From a virus (lineage: Duplodnaviria > Heunggongvirae > Uroviricota > Caudoviricetes), in the IMG/VR virus record IMGVR_UViG_2534681997_000007, positions 1 through 23,530 of that record: a stretch of 23,530 nucleotides of DNA. One strand, given 5' to 3'. The translations under genes were made by a program, and so were the position numbers. The notes below the pieces were generated by a model. That model worked only from the letters and a program-made list of their open reading frames with translations, had not been told where the DNA came from and did no database searches. Positions 1,246 through 11,561 of the stretch are shown piece after piece. The stretch's first letter is position 1, and each line of letters starts with the position of its first letter.

Positions 1246-1584
1246 TTAATTACAAAGGGCTGTAGCGGCATCAATCACCGGTGAAATTGAAATTTTAACG
1301 CCGTCATACTCAGGGTCATCCTTCCATACGTCATCTAAGTTAGACCCCTCCAGCTTTCCTGATTTAACAGCATCTACCGCCATGCCATTCAGAGGATATC
1401 TATCATCAGTTTTGATGTCATACACAAAAGCATAAGCACGGTTAACACATGATACCTTTGCCTTTTCAAAGGTTAGAGGCCACTTGTCACCATATGCAGC
1501 GCCGTCTATCTCTTTAAACTTCTCAGCGGCTATGGCTGAGGAAGAAAGTGCAATGCAGACTATCGCAAATATAAACTTTTTCAT
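1246..1584 (-). CDS. Small secreted/periplasmic protein of unknown function (moron between int and cI)
   Basis: 112 aa; N-terminal signal peptide MKKFIFAIVCIALSSSAIA-AEK; SD AAGGAG 5 nt upstream of ATG on the minus strand; AT-rich relative to the late genes. Confidence 0.6.
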   Translation of the reverse strand: MKKFIFAIVCIALSSSAIAAEKFKEIDGAAYGDKWPLTFEKAKVSCVNRAYAFVYDIKTDDRYPLNGMAVDAVKSGKLEGSNLDDVWKDDPEYDGVKISISPVIDAATALCN

Positions 1585-1593
1585 TACTGCTCC

Positions 1594-2439
1594 TTAAACA
1601 TGCTTTTCCAAAGTAAAAATAACCGCACCTGATGGTGTGATATCTGAAATATTACATTCAAACTCAGCAGACTTATTTGATAACCTGACCTTTCCGCCTG
1701 GCAACCTGATTACGTCAAAAACATCGAGTGCGCCATCAATACCAATAAGCCAGCGACCATTTCCTATCTTCGAGTTAGAACTATCAACAAGCCAAGATGT
1801 GCTCACACCATCAATAAACACTAAATCATCAGTATTTGATGGAACCATAGATATATCAGGAGTCCAGCGTCCGATATCTTTGAGTTCGCCAGCCTCGAGG
1901 CGGCACTTTCTAATCGTTAAAGCATTTGCCGGTTCACCATCATTACTGTTACGCATCTGGCCTTTTCCGGTTGATAACCATTCTAACGATACGCCAGTAT
2001 CAAGGGCGCAAGTGACAACCACGTCACCGGGGAAAAAATCGCGTCTAACCCAAGTGCTTATAGTGCCGGAAGATATACCTAATAAATCTCCAAGCTCTTT
2101 TTGCAGAGTAAAACCATACGCATCGAGAATCCGACGCAGAACCGCCCTCCCTCCATTTGCCATGATTTCATCATAGAGTTGCTTACCTTTAAGCTTAGTT
2201 TTCACCACTTCAAATCTTGCATTTGCAAGCTCACCATTAATTAGCCATCGCAGGTCAGCTCCAGTATCAAGAGCACACTCAACGAAAACGTTGCTAGGGA
2301 TTACGTTTCTAGCAAGCCAGCTACTCACGTTGTTTGCATGTATGCCAAGCCTTTCGGCTAGTTCCTTTTGCTGCTTAAAGCCGTATGCAGAAAGGACACG
2401 TTCCAATGCGGCAGACGCATTAACATCATTTTTAGACAT
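1594..2439 (-). CDS. cI: Immunity repressor, phage 186 CI-like, with two tandem copies of the CI-type HTH domain plus a C-terminal oligomerisation-type domain
   Basis: Start placed at the Met of MSKNDV (2439) rather than ORF-track 2628, which would run through the divergent promoter and the apl start; internal duplication LERVLSAYGFKQQKELAERLGI...CALDTGADLRWL / LRRILDAYGFTLQKELGDLLGI...CALDTGVSLEWL. Confidence 0.75.
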   Translation of the reverse strand: MSKNDVNASAALERVLSAYGFKQQKELAERLGIHANNVSSWLARNVIPSNVFVECALDTGADLRWLINGELANARFEVVKTKLKGKQLYDEIMANGGRAVLRRILDAYGFTLQKELGDLLGISSGTISTWVRRDFFPGDVVVTCALDTGVSLEWLSTGKGQMRNSNDGEPANALTIRKCRLEAGELKDIGRWTPDISMVPSNTDDLVFIDGVSTSWLVDSSNSKIGNGRWLIGIDGALDVFDVIRLPGGKVRLSNKSAEFECNISDITPSGAVIFTLEKHV

Positions 2440-2453
2440 ATGACACCAACAAG

Positions 2454-2475
2454 AATTTTGTTTACAACCAAAATT
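2454..2475. promoter_or_regulatory. Inverted repeat AATTTTG-N8-CAAAATT overlapping the -35 of the lytic promoter; candidate operator
   Basis: Perfect 7-bp arms at 2454-2460 and 2469-2475 read directly. Confidence 0.35.
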
Positions 2476-2489
2476 TAGCGATCTATATT
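2461..2489 (+). promoter_or_regulatory. Sigma70-type early lytic promoter (pR-like): TTTACA-17 bp-TATATT
   Basis: -35 at 2461-2466 and -10 at 2484-2489, each one mismatch from consensus, 17-bp spacer; sits in the cI/apl divergent intergenic region ~65 bp upstream of the apl ATG. Confidence 0.55.
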
Positions 2490-2552
2490 GGTGCTCACCG
2501 ACCAAGATGCACACCACTGCACTACATTTCAAACAACAGGAGATAATGCGAT

Positions 2553-2924
2553 ATGTCAGATGCAAAATCAATCTCGACGCACGACTCGCAAAACTCACAA
2601 AATCAAACTGTGCTGCTAGATCCAACACAGTTTGATGCCATCGTTACCGCCATGCTGCCAGCTCTACAGACAATGATTCGCTCCGCTATGTCAGACACGA
2701 TGACTGTGAAAGACTTCGCCGCTACTCGCGGTGTTAGCGAGCGTCTGGTCTGGCAATGGCTCGATGAGGGAGTCCTTCTCAAAGCTCCGACCAAAGACTT
2801 TTCCAACAAAGAGGAAGCTGCTAAACGAAGCCGAACCCTCGTAAATGTAAAAGCATGGCGCGATAAGCTGACTCAACAAGCGATTGATTGTCGCTACATC
2901 GACCAGCGCACCGCTCTTAACTGA
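2553..2924 (+). CDS. apl: Apl/Cox-like excisionase and transcriptional regulator (HTH)
   Basis: 123 aa; SD AGGAGA 9 nt upstream; HTH segment MTVKDFAATRGVSERLVWQWLDEGVL; first gene of the rightward operon opposite cI, as in 186. True start could be a downstream Met. Confidence 0.6.
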   Translation: MSDAKSISTHDSQNSQNQTVLLDPTQFDAIVTAMLPALQTMIRSAMSDTMTVKDFAATRGVSERLVWQWLDEGVLLKAPTKDFSNKEEAAKRSRTLVNVKAWRDKLTQQAIDCRYIDQRTALN

Positions 2925-4493: not shown

Positions 4494-6713
4494 TTGGCTG
4501 TTCAATTCGCTTATCCGTGGAACGTCCCACGGTCGGCAATCTCCAGCCCATACCTTACTTATGAGCAACAGCATCGTCGCGACCGTATGTTCGCGGCTTT
4601 GCTGCATGCAAAAAAGGTGCTTTCTCTCCAGCCCGACTGCGTACGGTTAGATGTTTATCGCACTGCTGCGGTGCTGGAGCAAAATCAGGGTAGTCAACGA
4701 GCCAATGCATTTTTAATCAGCTTCTGCAAAAAGGCATTGCCGCGTCTTGAACTGGTCGCAAAAAAATACGAATGCGCTGGTATCAACAGCAAGGTATCAA
4801 CCGCTGTTTTTGGAAGTCATTTTGATACTCAGCAAATGCAATATCTGTCGTCACGCATGGTTAATATGGTCGCCCAATATAACCGTCTCCCGGACATGTC
4901 GCGCGCTGATGTTGACCTGTTGGCCGCTGATATTGCTAATTTCATTCGTGGTGAACTTGCCAACATTAATGACCACGGATTCGGCGAGCTTAAAACGCTG
5001 TACACCTGGTATATTCGTGCTGGCTTTATTTCCCTCCAATTCAACGTTATCCCACCACATTGGGAGCGGGTTGAAAAAAAATATGTCGGTGCGGATGAAA
5101 TCGCACCGGCTATCGCCAAAATGTTTAACGATGGGTGGTGGCGCGGTCGTTTGCGCCGTGTTGCAGCTACGTGGCGCGAACACCTGCAAATTGCAGTCGG
5201 CAACGTCAGTAAGAAAAAAAACACTTACGCGAGTAAAAACTGCGTGACTGACTGGCGTGAACAAAAGCGCCGCACTCGTGAATTTCTCAAAGGTCTGGAT
5301 CTCGAAGACGAAGACGGCAACCGTATCAGCCTAATTGAAAAATATGATGGCTCAGTTGCTAACCCTGCGATTCGCCGCTGTGAGCTCATGACCCGCATTC
5401 GTGGGTTTGAAAACATCTGTAATGAGCTCGGTTATGTCGGTGAGTTTTACACTCTAACCGCGCCGTCAAAATATCACGCCACGACTAAAGCCGGTTACCG
5501 TAACAGCAAATGGAGCGGTGCCAGCCCGGCTGACACGCAAAACTATCTAACCGGTATCTGGGCGCGTATCCGTGCCAAACTACATCGGGAAGATGTCCGT
5601 ATTTTCGGTATTCGTGTCGCCGAGCCCCATCACGACGGCACTCCACACTGGCACATGCTGATGTTCATGCTGCCGGAAGATGTTGAATATGTTCGCTCCA
5701 TCGTCCGTAAATACGCATGGAAAGAAGACCGCCACGAACTGAAAAGCGATAAATCCAAAAAAGCACGTTTCCACGCCGAGTCCATTGACCCGGAGAAAGG
5801 CAGCGCAACCGGCTATGTTGCTAAATACATTTCAAAAAATATCGACGGTTATGCTCTCGATGGTGAAACCGATGATGAAAGCGGTGAGCTGCTGAAAGAG
5901 ACAGCCCCCGCCGTTTCAGCATGGGCTGCGCGCTGGCACATCCGTCAGTTTCAGTTTATTGGTGGTGCGCCGGTGACGGTTTACCGTGAGTTGCGTCGCC
6001 TCGCTGATACCGAAACCGCGCACGGTCTGAGCGTTGAGTTTGCCGCCGTCCATGATGCCGCCGACGCTGGTGACTGGGCTGGTTATGTTAATGCTCAAGG
6101 TGGGCCGTTTGTCCGTCGCGATGATTTACAGGTGCGCACACTGTATGAACCGCGTACCGAGCTTAATCAGTACGGTGAGGAAACGGTATGTATTAAGGGG
6201 GTCTACGATTCCTCCATAGGTGCAGGAAGCCCGATTTTAACCCGGCTCACTCAGTGGAAGATTGTTCCGAAGCGTGCTGTTGATTTGGCCGTTGACCTTC
6301 AGGACGGCAAAGCCGTCCCTCGGAGTTCTGTCAATAACTGTACGGGAAGCGAAAGCGATCCACCGGAACTCGATTTATCAAAACCCCTGAGTCGACGTGA
6401 AAGACGAGAGCTGACAAACCGACTCAGGAAGCAAAAGCCAGCAATACGGCGAAAATTCATCCACGGAACGGATGAGCAAAACGCAGCTATAGCTAAAACT
6501 ATCGACGAGATACAACTTACAACTGGCATCACAATCAGCCGGGGCGAAGCCCTGCACCTGATGGCCGGTGGTAAAAGTTGTTTTGATGACAAATGGCTAC
6601 GCGGAACATCAATGGGTGAAATATTTTCCGCTGCGCCATCACATCAGGCTAAAGCCAAGAAAATCCTTAATCGCGTTGCTGCGATGGCTGAAGCAGCAAA
6701 AACCAATACCTGA
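4494..6713 (+). CDS. A: Rolling-circle replication initiator endonuclease gpA (P2 A / 186 RepA family)
   Basis: 739-aa ORF; HUH-type motif PHHDGTPHWHMLMF and catalytic tyrosine motif TGYVAKYISKNIDGYA; ORF-track start 4494 is TTG one base after the upstream stop, first in-frame ATG is 4587, so the start is uncertain. Confidence 0.9.
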   Translation: MAVQFAYPWNVPRSAISSPYLTYEQQHRRDRMFAALLHAKKVLSLQPDCVRLDVYRTAAVLEQNQGSQRANAFLISFCKKALPRLELVAKKYECAGINSKVSTAVFGSHFDTQQMQYLSSRMVNMVAQYNRLPDMSRADVDLLAADIANFIRGELANINDHGFGELKTLYTWYIRAGFISLQFNVIPPHWERVEKKYVGADEIAPAIAKMFNDGWWRGRLRRVAATWREHLQIAVGNVSKKKNTYASKNCVTDWREQKRRTREFLKGLDLEDEDGNRISLIEKYDGSVANPAIRRCELMTRIRGFENICNELGYVGEFYTLTAPSKYHATTKAGYRNSKWSGASPADTQNYLTGIWARIRAKLHREDVRIFGIRVAEPHHDGTPHWHMLMFMLPEDVEYVRSIVRKYAWKEDRHELKSDKSKKARFHAESIDPEKGSATGYVAKYISKNIDGYALDGETDDESGELLKETAPAVSAWAARWHIRQFQFIGGAPVTVYRELRRLADTETAHGLSVEFAAVHDAADAGDWAGYVNAQGGPFVRRDDLQVRTLYEPRTELNQYGEETVCIKGVYDSSIGAGSPILTRLTQWKIVPKRAVDLAVDLQDGKAVPRSSVNNCTGSESDPPELDLSKPLSRRERRELTNRLRKQKPAIRRKFIHGTDEQNAAIAKTIDEIQLTTGITISRGEALHLMAGGKSCFDDKWLRGTSMGEIFSAAPSHQAKAKKILNRVAAMAEAAKTNT

Positions 6714-7372: not shown

Positions 7373-7843
7373 ATGTACAACCCGATTTGCATCGTGAACG
7401 AATTTATCGAACGCGCTAAAAAAAACGGGGACAACCTCACCCACATGCAGGCTCAAAAGCTTCTTTATGTTGCTCATGGTTACAGCCTAGCTTTTCTTAA
7501 CGAGCCTTTGCTTGAAGAACCAGTGTGTGCGTGGAGGTACGGTCCGGTAATTCCATCGGTCTACTATGCGCTGCGCCATAATCGTTCAAACCCGATATCA
7601 GAAAAAGCATCATCAACATCGGTAGTACCGGAAAAGATAGACAGTAAAACTGCATCACTTCTGGACATGATTTACGAAACATACGGGAAGCTTTCCGGTG
7701 TTCTCTTATCTGAATTTACTCATCGCCCAGGTACTCCATGGTCACAGGCGATAGAAAAACGAGAAAACATCATCAGTGATGCCAGTATCAAAGACTATTA
7801 TTTGCGTCTAGCAAGACGAGATCCAGTTTGCAACGGATTGTAA
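7373..7843 (+). CDS. Panacea-domain (DUF4065, GepA/SocA-like) protein; candidate antitoxin or immunity component
   Basis: 156 aa; strong SD AAGGAGG 5 nt upstream; motif MQAQKLLYVAHGYSLAFLNEPLLEEPVCAWRYGPVIPSVYYAL matches the DUF4065 core as I recall it. Confidence 0.75.
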   Translation: MYNPICIVNEFIERAKKNGDNLTHMQAQKLLYVAHGYSLAFLNEPLLEEPVCAWRYGPVIPSVYYALRHNRSNPISEKASSTSVVPEKIDSKTASLLDMIYETYGKLSGVLLSEFTHRPGTPWSQAIEKRENIISDASIKDYYLRLARRDPVCNGL

Positions 7844-7860
7844 AATCAGATTATTATTGA

Positions 7861-7885
7861 CCCCGCTTAAACTGCGGGGTTTTTT
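7861..7885 (+). terminator. Intrinsic-terminator-like hairpin CCCCGC-TTAAACT-GCGGGG followed by TTTTTT, ending immediately at the start codon of the next gene
   Basis: 6-bp GC stem, 7-nt loop, 6 T; the only purine-rich SD-like element for the downstream ATG (GGGG, 7876-7879) is inside the 3' arm. Confidence 0.5.
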
Positions 7886-8482
7886 ATGTCGTCCGATAAT
7901 GAAACAATCAAAAATCTGATGAAAGAGGCTATACAGAGTCATGTTACTGATCTCTTCAAATCTCTTGATGTAGGCCCTAAACCAAAGCCGACAGAAAGAT
8001 CCTCTCCCGCCAATGATGACCCCGAAGCAAACCTTTCTGCTGAAGACAAAGCCAAAAAAGAAGAACAGGCTTTTGATTCGCCTACTGATGATGAGCACGA
8101 AGAGTTGCAAGGTCTTGCATACTGGAGTCTGGAGCACAGGCGTCGGATAGACTCTCTTACAATTCAAAAAACACAAGAAGAAATTGTACGTATCTCTTGT
8201 GAAAACGACGACCTTAGGGCTAAAACAAAGAACAACCATGCAGTTGCCCGTGGCCGTCAAATAGACAACAGACTGCGTTTACAATTAGCTGCTGCAACCT
8301 TTAAGTTCATGCAGTATTGGTGTGGTTTTGTCGCTTTCATTGTTGCTTGGTATGTATTCGCCCACTATGGCAAACCTGAAAAAGAAGTCATCATTGCACT
8401 ACTCGGAACCAGCACAATAAGTATTATTGGTTTAGTTGGTTTTGTAGTTAGCGGTTTATTTAAATCAAAAAAAGATGAATAG
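7886..8482 (+). CDS. Small membrane protein with acidic N-terminal region and two C-terminal transmembrane helices; candidate toxin/abortive-infection effector
   Basis: 198 aa; hydrophobic segments FKFMQYWCGFVAFIVAWYVFAHY and VIIALLGTSTISIIGLVGFVVSGLF; N-terminal ~130 aa rich in D/E/K; AT-rich. Confidence 0.65.
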   Translation: MSSDNETIKNLMKEAIQSHVTDLFKSLDVGPKPKPTERSSPANDDPEANLSAEDKAKKEEQAFDSPTDDEHEELQGLAYWSLEHRRRIDSLTIQKTQEEIVRISCENDDLRAKTKNNHAVARGRQIDNRLRLQLAAATFKFMQYWCGFVAFIVAWYVFAHYGKPEKEVIIALLGTSTISIIGLVGFVVSGLFKSKKDE

Positions 8483-8532
8483 CACAGCATACCTAAAACA
8501 GGCTAACCCCACTGAAGAAAAACTATTTTTTT

Positions 8533-8574
8533 GTGCCAGCAGAGTTGAACAACTCGCACCACGGGGCGTTAGTT
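8533..8574 (+). repeat. Left copy of an imperfect ~42-bp direct repeat (core GTTGAACAAC...GGCGTTAGT)
   Basis: 31 of 42 positions identical to 8938-8979, including exact 10-mer and 9-mer blocks in the same register. Confidence 0.35.
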
Positions 8575-8696
8575 CTGCCTTTCAAAGTTTCTCGATGTGT
8601 TATTGATTACACACCCGTGATGAATGGGACGTTACCTTGGCGGGTTTTATAGTGGCGCTTTGGCAGCACTAAATAAAATTCATTGAAGGCGATAAT

Positions 8697-8906
8697 ATGC
8701 ATCGACTACCGGGCGAGATTCCGCAGCACAAAACTAAAAGCATACAACTTATGGCTATCGTTCATCGTCTGCAGACGATAATGGTCAATGAGAACCTGAC
8801 TCCAGCAGAGCTAGTCGGGTGTGCAGAAATAGTCAGGGATAATTACGGCAAGCTGGATAATATCAGCAGACCGACACAATACTCACCTCCACCACGTCGG
8901 CGATAG
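8697..8906 (+). CDS. Small hypothetical ORF between the repeat copies
   Basis: 69 aa; ATG with weak SD GAAGG; no recognisable domain. Confidence 0.3.
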   Translation: MHRLPGEIPQHKTKSIQLMAIVHRLQTIMVNENLTPAELVGCAEIVRDNYGKLDNISRPTQYSPPPRRR

Positions 8907-8917
8907 CAAACGCCGTC

Positions 8918-8942
8918 AGCGCTGAAACTCGCTTTCAGTGCT
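8918..8942. other. Stem-loop AGCGCTGAAA-CTCGC-TTTCAGTGCT between convergent genes
   Basis: 10-bp stem with one G-U pair; no U-tract on either side, so not a canonical terminator. Confidence 0.35.
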
Positions 8943-8979
8943 GGCGGGGTTGAACAACGAGCTACGCGAGGCGTTAGTC
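8938..8979 (+). repeat. Right copy of the imperfect ~42-bp direct repeat; overlaps the stop codon of the HNH gene
   Basis: See left copy at 8533-8574. Confidence 0.35.
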
Positions 8980-9852
8980 GAATTTTACAGGCGACAATGG
9001 TTGTTTTAATTCTTTATCGTGGAAATGTTTGTAGCGTGGATCCTTACGAGCCTCATCGGAAAATACCGATCGATTATCTTCTATCCTAAGATGGCCCGAG
9101 TCTAATAAACGATGTAGGTCTGAAGCAAGTGCAATACCGTTTTCAACACTTGGCGCTCCGCCTGCCGCGTGGCTTAAAATGTGACACGCATCAATCGCAA
9201 AGCGAGAGCCCGTAATTGCGCAACATCCCCTCCAATTGGCTAATACGTCCTTTCTGAACCGGCCTTGAGCTTTTCGTATTTTTGTCAGCGAATAACCATC
9301 TTCAACATATGAACGCTGCTCGAATGTAGGTGATGGTTCGGTTATCTGGGGTAATTGTTGCAAACCATTCTGGTTAACCTTAAATTCTTCCCAAAGATGC
9401 TTACTAACTATTTTACCTTGGCGAGCGCACCAGTTGGTAAAATCTCTCTTTTCGTATTCATCTAAAGACGCCAGCCATTCGCGTAATTCAGAAGTGGCTA
9501 AAACATTTTGATGTAATTGACGATTTTGTGGCAGTGGTGCCAACCTCTCTTTTTTCTCGCCTCGCCGGTAAGGGGGAAGTTTCAATGTGTCCTTCATTGA
9601 AATCGTGCCAGCTGCGTTGGTTCGGACGCTGAATTGACCAGCATACTCAACTTTTTTAGCAGTTGTGGGAGTTGTTGGCTTTCTGTTATTAGCCATCCAA
9701 CGCTGTACTTGGTGCAAGACTTCACTAGCTTCCAGCCCCTTACTTATCAATTCTTTGACATATTTTTTAACCTCTTGTTTATTTGGTTGGTATTCGAATA
9801 AATACGGTGAAAGCTTTAAAATTTCTTTCATTGAAGTTTTTGTTTCAGCCAT
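8974..9852 (-). CDS. HNH-endonuclease-domain protein with ~200-aa N-terminal domain of unknown function; candidate defence nuclease
   Basis: Start at the Met of MAETKT (9852) preceded by GGGGGGA; C-terminal motif CCAITGSRFAIDACHILSHAAGGAPSVENGIALASDLHRLLDSGHLRIED, HNH_2-like as recalled; AT-rich. Confidence 0.75.
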   Translation of the reverse strand: MAETKTSMKEILKLSPYLFEYQPNKQEVKKYVKELISKGLEASEVLHQVQRWMANNRKPTTPTTAKKVEYAGQFSVRTNAAGTISMKDTLKLPPYRRGEKKERLAPLPQNRQLHQNVLATSELREWLASLDEYEKRDFTNWCARQGKIVSKHLWEEFKVNQNGLQQLPQITEPSPTFEQRSYVEDGYSLTKIRKAQGRFRKDVLANWRGCCAITGSRFAIDACHILSHAAGGAPSVENGIALASDLHRLLDSGHLRIEDNRSVFSDEARKDPRYKHFHDKELKQPLSPVKFD

Positions 9853-10028
9853 AAATCCCCCCATTTTAATTTTCTAAAAATGCACTTAATGTCATTTTTC
9901 TCAGCGTGCATTCATGGTGCATGGTTTTGCATGCGAATAATGTCTCATTTTTATGGGTGCGCCACCAGTGCTGGCGCGGATCCAGAGTAATCATGCAACT
10001 GCATTAAAACCGCCCCATAAAGCGGGCA

Positions 10029-10047
10029 GGCGTGGCGGGGAAAGCAT
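10029..10047. other. cos site (19-nt cohesive-end sequence GGCGTGGCGGGGAAAGCAT)
   Basis: Matches the phage 186 cohesive end as I recall it (P2 differs at two positions); lies between the cargo island and portal gene Q as expected for a P2-like prophage. Confidence 0.6.
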
Positions 10048-10057
10048 TGCGCGCCAG

Positions 10058-10158
10058 CGGTGGTGCGTATTATTAAAAATTATCGTCTGAGAACGTCGTG
10101 ACGGCGCTGTAGTGGCCGGGTGTGATCGTGGGCGCGTGGTGCGTCTGTGGCGTGGTGC
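10058..10158. repeat. Three copies of (C/G)GTGGTGC(G) within 100 bp on the Q-proximal side of cos; candidate terminase recognition repeats
   Basis: CGGTGGTGCGT at 10058-10068, CGTGGTGCG at 10135-10143, CGTGGTGC at 10151-10158. Confidence 0.35.
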
Positions 10159-10251
10159 TAAAGGATGGGATCAGTTGCACAATTTTACGGTTTCGCTTTG
10201 GCTAATATCCATATTGAGACTTTATGTTCCCCACAACAGTTGGAGGCTTTA

Positions 10252-10476
10252 ATGGATAACTATCATATTACAAAAGATGGCGATAAGTGGAAGTTGCAAA
10301 AAGAGGGCAATGATCGCCCTAGCAAGACCGCGACCACAAAGGCCGAGCTGATTAAAACAACATCTGAGTTTATGTCGAACAAAACAGGCTCGGTCAAAAT
10401 TCACAAGGAAGATGGGAAAATTCAGGAAGAACGCACTTATCAGAGAAAAGATGATCCTAAAAAGTCTAAAGGCTAA
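10252..10476 (+). CDS. Small basic protein, DUF2188-like, between cos and the portal gene
   Basis: Start at ATG 10252 (MDNYHITKDGDKWKLQKEGNDRPSK...) with SD GGAGG 5 nt upstream; ORF-track start 10165 lacks an SD. Confidence 0.55.
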   Translation: MDNYHITKDGDKWKLQKEGNDRPSKTATTKAELIKTTSEFMSNKTGSVKIHKEDGKIQEERTYQRKDDPKKSKG

Positions 10477-10484
10477 CATAGCAA

Positions 10485-10505
10485 AAGCCGCCAAAATGGC
10501 GGCTT
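10485..10505 (-). terminator. Hairpin AAGCCGCC-AAAAT-GGCGGCTT between convergent genes; best fits termination of the Q/P operon
   Basis: 8-bp stem; on the minus strand it is followed by TTTGCTATGTT; sits 10 bp beyond the Q stop. Confidence 0.5.
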
Positions 10506-10514
10506 AAAAGGTGA

Positions 10515-11561
10515 TTATTCCGGGTTGTCGAGTGTGTACTCTTTGAACCTGATGACCTCCATACCGAGCCAGTCGTTTACCTCCCTGAACCTATCCTGCA
10601 GGGGTGACAGCTCATTACGCACAAATACCTTTGCCACCTTCTCAACGTCACCGAGTGAACCGATATTCTCGGGCTTGCCGCCCATGAGCTGGAACGGCAC
10701 GCGGTGCGCGTCCATCAGGTCGGCGGCGCTGGCTTTCTTAATGTTGAAAAAGTCATCCTTTGTGGCGACCTCGCTCAGTGGCACGATTTTGATGCCGTCC
10801 GGTTTTCCGCCGGGGGCGTAGAAAAACAGGTTCTTAAAGTTGCCGAGTCCCTTCGAGTTACGCATCGCCTCGCGCAGCGATTCGACGTCGGTCGCACTTT
10901 GCGCCGGGTCAGTCACATACATGATGTAGCCTGCGTGCGCGCCGTTCTGATAATACTTGCGGCGGAACAGCGTCGCGGATTCATTCAGCCAAGCGGAATT
11001 AAGCGCGCTGAGATATTCCGGCAGACCGTAAATCTCCTGATTAATGTCGGGCTCCAGCAGGTGAAACACGGTATCAGGCGCGAACTCGTGCGGCTGGGTG
11101 AAGTTTTCCACAAACCAGAAAATCGAATCGTCGACTCCGCGTCGGGTGTATTTGGCTGGCGAGGCCAGCAGTTTGATTAACTGGCCGGTGACGCTGTGGC
11201 GCTGCTCAAGAAAGGCGTTACCGAATACCAGATAATCGAGCGCAAAGCGGCTGAAATCCTGACGGGATAACAACGGGTGCGGAATGTAGGTGCTCGCGAG
11301 CACGTTACGCTTAACATAAATTGGCGAGCTGTGATGCACGGCAGAGCGCAGGCTCTTTGCCAGCCCTGAGAAGCTGACCGGCGGCTCGTACCATTTGCCG
11401 TTACTGATGCACTCGACGTAATCCAGAATGTCGCGCTTATCGAGTACCGGCACCGGCTCGCCGAAGGTGAACGCTGTCGTTTTTGGCGGTGCGCTGGCGG
11501 TCAGTTGTTGTGGTTTGCTGGCCTTTTGTGCGTTGGCTTTACGGGATTTTTGTTTACCCAT
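10515..11561 (-). CDS. Q: Portal protein gpQ
   Basis: 348 aa, P2 Q-sized, basic N-terminus MGKQKSRKANAQK; position next to cos and downstream of terminase P. Confidence 0.9.
   Translation of the reverse strand: MGKQKSRKANAQKASKPQQLTASAPPKTTAFTFGEPVPVLDKRDILDYVECISNGKWYEPPVSFSGLAKSLRSAVHHSSPIYVKRNVLASTYIPHPLLSRQDFSRFALDYLVFGNAFLEQRHSVTGQLIKLLASPAKYTRRGVDDSIFWFVENFTQPHEFAPDTVFHLLEPDINQEIYGLPEYLSALNSAWLNESATLFRRKYYQNGAHAGYIMYVTDPAQSATDVESLREAMRNSKGLGNFKNLFFYAPGGKPDGIKIVPLSEVATKDDFFNIKKASAADLMDAHRVPFQLMGGKPENIGSLGDVEKVAKVFVRNELSPLQDRFREVNDWLGMEVIRFKEYTLDNPE

Follow-up and report, generated by a model that had tools for sequence, protein, structure and literature searches.

The stretch IMGVR_UViG_2534681997_000007 (23,530 nucleotides; its whole length is referred to below as the window) represents a 186/P2-like prophage, which carries next to its cos site a minus-strand gene for a 292-residue protein with a C-terminal HNH_2 nuclease motif (hereafter the HNH gene and the HNH protein). 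The gene is best explained as a horizontally acquired, self-contained accessory gene ('moron') of the prophage, and there is an even chance that this cargo gene encodes a nuclease serving defence or exclusion. Defence is ranked over packaging because the gene occupies a known hotspot slot, forms an optional cassette, has orthologues away from cos and terminase, and differs in size and zinc site from the HNH proteins associated with cos. The orphan N-terminal half, a candidate sensor, is what is new here; the hotspot and the nuclease family, like the principle of a sensor and a nuclease in one chain, were known before.

The HNH gene and its two-part product

The program-made list of open reading frames (ORFs) gives a minus-strand ORF at 8974..9864 (296 residues). 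The start at 9852 (292 residues) is better than that at 9864, because a G6 Shine-Dalgarno sequence (GGGGGG, 9857-9862) lies 4 nt 5' of the ATG at 9852, phrog_31713 (PHROGs) aligns with the protein end to end (residues 1-292 of 292), the orthologues share the same start Met in the alignments, and exactly this 292-residue protein is recorded in E. coli on 32 contigs, where it is named merely 'HNH endonuclease'. The protein contains only four cysteines (C142, C210, C211 and C223), and a CxxC pair is absent.

The gene had been called AT-rich in the preliminary description, and this is the case: its GC content is 42.4% and that of its third codon positions (GC3) is 36%, compared with 55–57% in the neighbouring genes Q and P. 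The ratio of nonsynonymous to synonymous substitution rates (dN/dS), calculated against the Pectobacterium orthologue, is 0.09 for the whole gene, 0.10 for its N-terminal part and 0.065 for its C-terminal part, which places both halves of the protein under strong purifying selection. Low dN/dS and the GC contrast with Q and P argue for a real, constrained and foreign-looking gene.

The nuclease assignment of the C-terminal part is based on several matches. Pfam HNH_2 (PF13391) was found at residues 211-257 above its gathering threshold (34.2 bits, cut-off 21), and the motifs CCAITG, ACHILSHAAGG and ENGIALASDLHRLLDSGHLRIED, by which the domain had been recognised before, are all present. The C-terminal ~70 residues were previously ascribed to this domain; the location was correct, but the length was underestimated, since homology to HNH_2 nucleases spans about residues 186-275 and the module comprises ~100 residues. 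The columns R193, Q196, F199, R200, C211-G215, H224, N238, G239, D245, H247 and D251 show no variation among 19 homologues. H224, N238, H247, D245 and D251 align with the HI..NG..H..D motif of VcaM4I, and H224 is presumed to be the general base. The nuclease motif is intact.

A search of the PDB with the HNH-family profile gave one solved relative, 6yex (E 1.6e-6), which is VcaM4I, a modification-dependent enzyme of the EVE-HNH type (PMC7897488). The top fold match of the AlphaFold2 (AF2) model is the SRA-HNH enzyme TagI (6ghs; Foldseek E 0.02, prob 0.98, 103 columns). NCBIfam NF045808 is matched partially, with residues 187-275 aligned to profile positions 152-249 at 36.8 bits against a cut-off of 180.

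The N-terminal half (residues 1-185) consists of two predicted three-helix modules with a conserved basic segment between them (Table 1). R77, N79, I84, T89 and PPYRR (93-97) of this segment are invariant in 12 orthologues with identity down to 40%. AF2 places two strands here (76-79 and 82-85) with a predicted local distance difference test score (pLDDT) of ~50–60, so that the segment could be disordered or form a beta-hairpin, which is predicted with low confidence. Residues 1-116 are basic, with an isoelectric point (pI) of 10.4 for residues 59-116. L123, W126, F138, W141, C142, G146 and K147 are conserved in the second helical module (residues 117-163), which is alignable also in a clade of ~390-residue paralogues (alignment columns 260-300).

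The motif SMK[ED]xLKL[SP]PY is found twice in the N-terminal half, as SMKEILKLSPY (residues 7-17) and as SMKDTLKLPPY (85-95), and both copies are kept in orthologues. They are encoded by a 33-nt direct repeat (9569-9601 and 9803-9835), the copies of which are 73% identical and 234 nt apart. An internal N-terminal duplication was considered and rejected: the 11-residue motif alone repeats (hhalign E 0.028, probability 1.8%), which does not establish a duplicated domain. An AbrB/SpoVT-like swapped hairpin at residues 75-95 was dropped as well, as neither a profile nor a fold speaks for it.

According to the preliminary description, the N-terminal part matches nothing that can be named, and all searches agree with this. 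Pfam, applied to the whole protein and to four sub-segments at E<=10, gave no match in the N-terminal part. PADLOC, PHROGs and NCBIfam recognised the nuclease or an unnamed phrog and nothing that assigns the N-terminal part. A phmmer search with residues 1-185 against 1.84 billion representatives returned 4 clusters (50% identity), all of the same family; the profile of the N-terminal alignment, compared with 5.8 billion proteins, returned 14 matches, all of the same family and all fused to HNH_2. The N-terminal half thus comes back in no more than about a dozen protein clusters. The PDB profile search with the N-terminal alignment gave zero matches, and the fold search gave none for residues 1-185.

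The hotspot slot, empty sites and orthologues

The genes of the prophage follow in the order integrase, CI, CII (CP76), Fil, replication gene A, portal Q, terminase P, scaffold O, capsid N and small terminase M. The P2-type cos sequence lies between A and Q, and the same pattern is present at cosR of P2 (L009 6076-6093). The distance from the cos 19-mer to the ATG of the HNH gene is 177 bp, close to the ~180 bp estimated earlier. P2-like phages have a hotspot for anti-phage systems in the stretch between gpA and gpQ beside cos (PMC9122126). The HNH gene fits the definition of this hotspot, being variable, located in the gpA-gpQ interval, adjoining cos and belonging to a P2-like prophage.

The gene old takes this place in P2, being the nearest to cos on the inward side; it lies on the same strand, with its start 195 bp away from cos. 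Its annotation is that of a non-essential lysogenic-conversion exonuclease, and the old-tin transcript starts are mapped 44–46 nt upstream of old. The convergent arrangement reported for the HNH gene was found again (HNH gene on the minus strand, hotspot genes at 7373-8906 on the plus strand). The designation 'reverse-oriented' also holds, yet in P2 the genes next to cos on this side (old, tin) normally have this orientation too.

The boundaries of the cassette were defined by blastn comparison with the E. coli EC12 prophage (L015). Window positions 8496-8977 and 9905-11300 match this prophage, and 8978-9904 (927 bp) stands where it has 85 bp; the right-hand breakpoint is at about 9904/9905. 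The flanks are present in 327 of the 5,426 complete E. coli genomes, and the HNH gene in 0. DNA-level searches for the gene found nothing in the phage collection or in the complete E. coli genome collection. The HNH gene is an optional cassette.

At the protein level, 37 proteins among 5.8 billion match the HNH protein, and its close cluster comprises E. coli, Salmonella, Citrobacter and Enterobacter. Full-length orthologues are 40–88% identical and occur in three kinds of location. Four other P2-like prophages (L001, L002, L010, L014) have an orthologue in the same slot, 172–179 bp from cos, with neighbouring cargo that differs in each of them. In a chromosomal island of Serratia fonticola, next to fis, an orthologue is found beside DUF4238, AbiV-like HEPN and ApeA/PDC-S58 genes. 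In an element resembling an integrative and conjugative element (ICE), an orthologue is accompanied by TraU/TraG, ArdA/ArdC-type anti-restriction genes and GmrSD. Cos and terminase are absent at the loci of the Serratia island and the ICE-like element.

No partner gene is common to the flanks across these contexts (tblastx), and no methyltransferase is present in the window or beside any orthologue. The scan of species-representative genomes gave C-terminal paralogues only, and therefore the full-length family is a rare strain-level accessory. In phages, tblastn returned only an unrelated HNH of a Pantoea phage, with 37% identity over the core.

Paralogues share the nuclease and have different N-termini, for which Pfam gives no assignment; their neighbours are McrBC, another HNH_2 gene or an HNH_5 gene. 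Paralogues of ~390 residues at L004 11578-12636 and L006 9500-10291, in Citrobacter and in an enterobacterial contig, have a further solitary HNH_2 or HNH_5 gene only a few kb away, which hints that stand-alone HNH nucleases form small clusters. The L014 prophage (Logan DRR253327 contig), whose orthologue is 57% identical, contains in the same hotspot a complete Hp1-Hp2-Hp3 (3HP) system at 8299-11040; its genes match the PADLOC models nearly perfectly (E 1e-77 to 1e-183).

Proposed function and rival explanations

As a defence or exclusion factor, the single-chain nuclease would protect the lysogen against other phages or mobile DNA. The basic N-terminal half, including both small helical modules and the invariant R-x-N...PPYRR segment, could be the target-recognition module, and the HNH_2 domain (with H224 as the general base and N238 and H247 holding the metal) could then cut or nick the bound DNA. 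The enzyme would have to discriminate foreign from host DNA, because the lysogen tolerates the nuclease without a methyltransferase or an immunity gene; the recognised feature should consequently be one that is missing from host DNA. The enzyme would most likely work in the manner of the type IV sensor-HNH nucleases, of which VcaM4I and TagI are examples, and with a sensor of a new kind. A precedent exists in single-chain type IV enzymes of 224–283 residues, in which a small helical sensor domain is joined to HNH (PMC11037411). By analogy with these enzymes, a specifically modification-dependent (type IV) logic is proposed tentatively, at less than an even chance. A similarly tentative proposal is that the orphan N-terminal half, with its helical modules, the R-x-N...PPYRR segment and the doubled SMKxxLKLxPY motif, represents a new sensor steering HNH_2 to a feature of invader DNA, which would make the protein a new single-gene defence family in the 'old' slot. 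What is sensed might be a base modification not yet recognised or a DNA structure, for instance cohesive ends. This scheme presumes that the gene is expressed in the lysogen, that the N-terminal half binds DNA and that the nuclease depends on modification.

Several points weigh against a defence function. A convincing sigma-70 promoter was not found upstream of the ATG; that the lysogen expresses the gene is an assumption drawn from P2 old, and the same analogy would put the transcript start near 9895-9900 on the minus strand. None of the SRA, EVE/PUA, SBD or winged-helix folds was recognised in the N-terminal half by sequence and fold searches, and about one third of the N-terminal AF2 model is of low confidence. 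The PADLOC matches are weak and restricted to the nuclease part, and the phosphorothioate-restriction match of NCBIfam is far under its cut-off (36.8 vs 180 bits). Placement in the hotspot is an association, which is suggestive and is not proof. The supplement of PMC9122126 (Rousset et al.) lists 'HNH_2 + hypothetical', the accessions of which could not be linked to the HNH protein; neither PMC9122126 nor PMC13586616 mentions an HNH system in its main text.

The main rival is an infection-triggered nuclease of the abortive infection (Abi) type. In this case the N-terminal half would bind a protein of the phage or an intermediate of replication or recombination and, as a sensor or autoinhibitor, would free a non-specific HNH_2 nuclease degrading host and phage DNA. 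The N-terminal part lacks a modification-reader fold, is predicted to be partly flexible and has a linear motif under strong conservation, which would suit a segment that binds a protein or has a regulatory role. The neighbours at homologous loci are mostly Abi systems (AbiV-like, ApeA HEPN, 3HP), a Panacea toxin-antitoxin lies in the window, and P2 old and tin, which share the slot, work according to their annotation by exclusion and cell-death mechanisms. However, the nearest characterised HNH_2 relatives are direct restriction enzymes, and the basic character of residues 1-116 suggests binding of nucleic acid. On balance the Abi-type mechanism is considered unlikely, though it is the strongest competitor of direct defence. 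Still less probable is a selfish, free-standing homing-type endonuclease, which would cut the cos-proximal region of gene-less P2-like genomes and be copied in by repair. The start of the gene is 172–179 bp from cos in all five P2-like prophages, with differing cargo on its other side, as homing could produce; the hotspot boundary explains this constant distance equally well, because the cos-flank backbone must be kept. A clean empty-site allele exists (the EC12 prophage, L015 1700-1830), and in a comparison of the prophages of E. coli and Pectobacterium the block of cassette plus cos (77.5%) is slightly better conserved than the late genes (71–74%). Yet homing enzymes typically have an HNH domain of another class than HNH_2, and modules of the NUMOD, IENR1 and AP2 types are absent from the protein (Pfam) and an Rfam intron from the window. 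Moreover, the orthologues in the chromosomal defence island and the ICE have unrelated flanks, and the gene is very rare in P2-like prophages (none of the 327 E. coli genomes with the site).

A packaging accessory that helps the P2-type terminase to cut cos, like gp74 in HK97-like phages, is very unlikely and can be regarded as nearly excluded. The position of the gene 177 bp from cos on the strand shared with Q and P would agree with it, and HNH genes beside cos and terminase are a known theme (PMC3592412). But terminase P, which has its own nuclease domain (Terminase_6C), and M are complete in the window, and the 327 E. coli genomes with closely related cos, Q and A flanks do without the gene, while orthologues exist with no cos or terminase nearby. 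The protein, with 292 residues and an HNH_2 domain, lacks the [CxxC]2 zinc site of the cos-associated HNH proteins (PMC3592412). A hairpin with a T-run separates the gene from the P-Q transcription unit, and P2 holds the non-essential exclusion gene old in the same slot. The preference for defence or exclusion over packaging, expressed already in the preliminary description, is therefore upheld by the hotspot slot, the flank-carrying genomes and the cos-free orthologues, with the function itself predicted.

If the HNH protein is active as a defence nuclease, a compact one-gene nuclease with a previously unseen recognition module would join the prophage-borne defences. Its specificity could be used as a DNA-modification reagent, as with other sensor-HNH enzymes. 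It would also be a further case of P2-like phages swapping cargo at the cos boundary, the HNH cassette standing in the place of P2 old. The gain would be incremental.

Neighbouring features and comparison with known systems

The features of the HNH gene and its surroundings are given in Table 1.

Table 1. Position of the HNH gene, the parts of its product and the surrounding elements in the window.
Feature	Position	Strand	Basis
HNH_2 nuclease coding sequence, 292 residues	8974..9852	minus	stop codon 8974-8976, ATG 9850-9852; ORF list, phrog_31713
Three-helix module, residues 1-58, pI 9.5	9679..9852	minus	AF2 helices 8-14, 25-37, 42-55, pLDDT 76-89
Conserved basic segment, residues 72-98	9559..9639	minus	invariant columns, AF2, charge
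Second three-helix module, residues 117-163	9364..9504	minus	AF2 helices 119-129, 132-145, 151-163, pLDDT 83-88
C-terminal nuclease module, residues ~186-292	8977..9297	minus	helix RKAQGRFRKDVLANW, then HNH_2 core; Pfam, NCBIfam, PDB, Foldseek
Leader specific to the cassette, with Shine-Dalgarno GGGGGG (9857-9862)	9853..9904	minus	blastn breakpoints
Backbone between cassette and cos	9905..10028		ATGCA-rich repeats; hairpin and T-run
cos 19-mer GGCGTGGCGGGGAAAGCAT, P2-type cohesive-end sequence	10029..10047	plus	single match, 0 expected by chance
Imperfect inverted repeat between convergent genes	8915..8955		fold -26.3 kcal/mol, z-score only -1.4
Replication gene A	4494-6713
Portal gene Q	10515-11561

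The backbone between the cassette and cos is 98.5% identical to that of the EC12 prophage without the HNH gene; conservation extends to the Pectobacterium prophages and, for a part of the sequence, to P2. It contains repeated ATGCA motifs (ATGCAGTTGCAT; GCATGCAAAACCATGCACCATGAATGCAC), which are found also upstream of P2 old. A terminator-like GC hairpin with a T-run (10010-10029, minus strand) abuts cos. This backbone probably holds cos-flank recognition sequences together with the equivalent of the P2 old promoter region; its elements could serve as a terminase recognition sequence, as the terminator of the P-Q operon or as the promoter region of the first hotspot gene. A promoter assigned by homology to P2 old was not retained, the alignment with the P2 old promoter region being partial only. 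The inverted repeat on the other side of the HNH gene is a possible, weakly supported bidirectional terminator.

Other genes of the hotspot are located on the plus strand. The gene at 7373-7843 encodes a Panacea-domain (SocA-like) antitoxin (PF13274, E 1.3e-18), and that at 7886-8482 a 198-residue protein without a family match, with a hydrophobic C-terminus of two transmembrane helices. Together they probably form a toxin-antitoxin pair of the PanA type; a DinI-like gene takes their place in related E. coli prophages. A 69-residue ORF (8697-8906), convergent with the HNH gene, has no family match. Its region is 84–87% identical at the DNA level in E. coli prophages without the HNH cassette, where a 69-residue hypothetical protein is annotated, and for this reason it is not a specific partner of the HNH gene.

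On the opposite side of cos, between cos and Q, lies a DUF2188 gene (10165-10476, plus strand; PF09954; PADLOC candidate PDC-S16, E 1e-14), which is kept in E. coli prophages without the HNH cassette. DUF2188 is present among the hotspot arrangements in the supplement of PMC9122126. A DUF2511 gene (1246-1584, minus strand) has the integrase on one side and the repressor on the other. The repressor is encoded by a long ORF (1594-2628, minus strand; 344 residues from GTG), which shows two Phage_CI_repr stretches, as does its 372-residue homologue in a Pectobacterium prophage.

Among characterised systems, the HNH protein is comparable to the type IV sensor-HNH class, represented by VcaM4I and TspA15I (EVE-HNH), TagI and ScoA3IV (SRA-HNH) and winged-helix (wH-HNH) enzymes of the SruGXI type. 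It shares with them a C-terminal HNH_2-type module with a preceding Q-x-x-F-R helix, and its best PDB sequence and fold matches fall in this class. The size of about 230–310 residues, the solitary occurrence without a methyltransferase and the location in defence islands are also common features (PMC6765204, PMC11037411). The difference concerns the N-terminal half, which is not EVE, SRA, PUA, SBD or a recognisable winged helix; instead, two small helical bundles and the basic PPYRR segment are exclusive to the family of the HNH protein. The phosphorothioate-dependent enzymes (NF045808; ScoMcrA-like SBD-HNH) have an alignable HNH_2 core, but the score of 36.8 bits compares with 180, and their sulfur-binding N-terminal domain is unmatched.

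Type IIS enzymes of the HphI, AlwI and BbrI group likewise combine HNH_2 with a separate N-terminal recognition domain, the fold of which is unknown (PMC5714182). Unlike the HNH protein, which has none in the window or beside any orthologue, these enzymes have cognate methyltransferases. The HK97-type gp74 proteins belong to the HNH superfamily too and are encoded beside cos. However, they are assigned to PF01844 and have the [CxxC]2 zinc site (PMC3592412), whereas the HNH protein belongs to PF13391, is ~3 times their size, is carried by only some members of its phage group and is present outside phages.

P2 Old has no sequence relationship to the HNH protein: it is a 586-residue ATPase-Toprim nuclease of the OLD family, whereas the HNH protein is without an ATPase. 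The resemblance is that of place and role. Both are nucleases (the HNH protein by prediction) and non-essential cargo, and both genes have the identical slot and orientation, each being the one nearest to cos on the gpA side and reading away from it. Their starts are 177 bp (HNH) and 195 bp (old) from cos, and the ATGCA-rich upstream backbone is partly shared.

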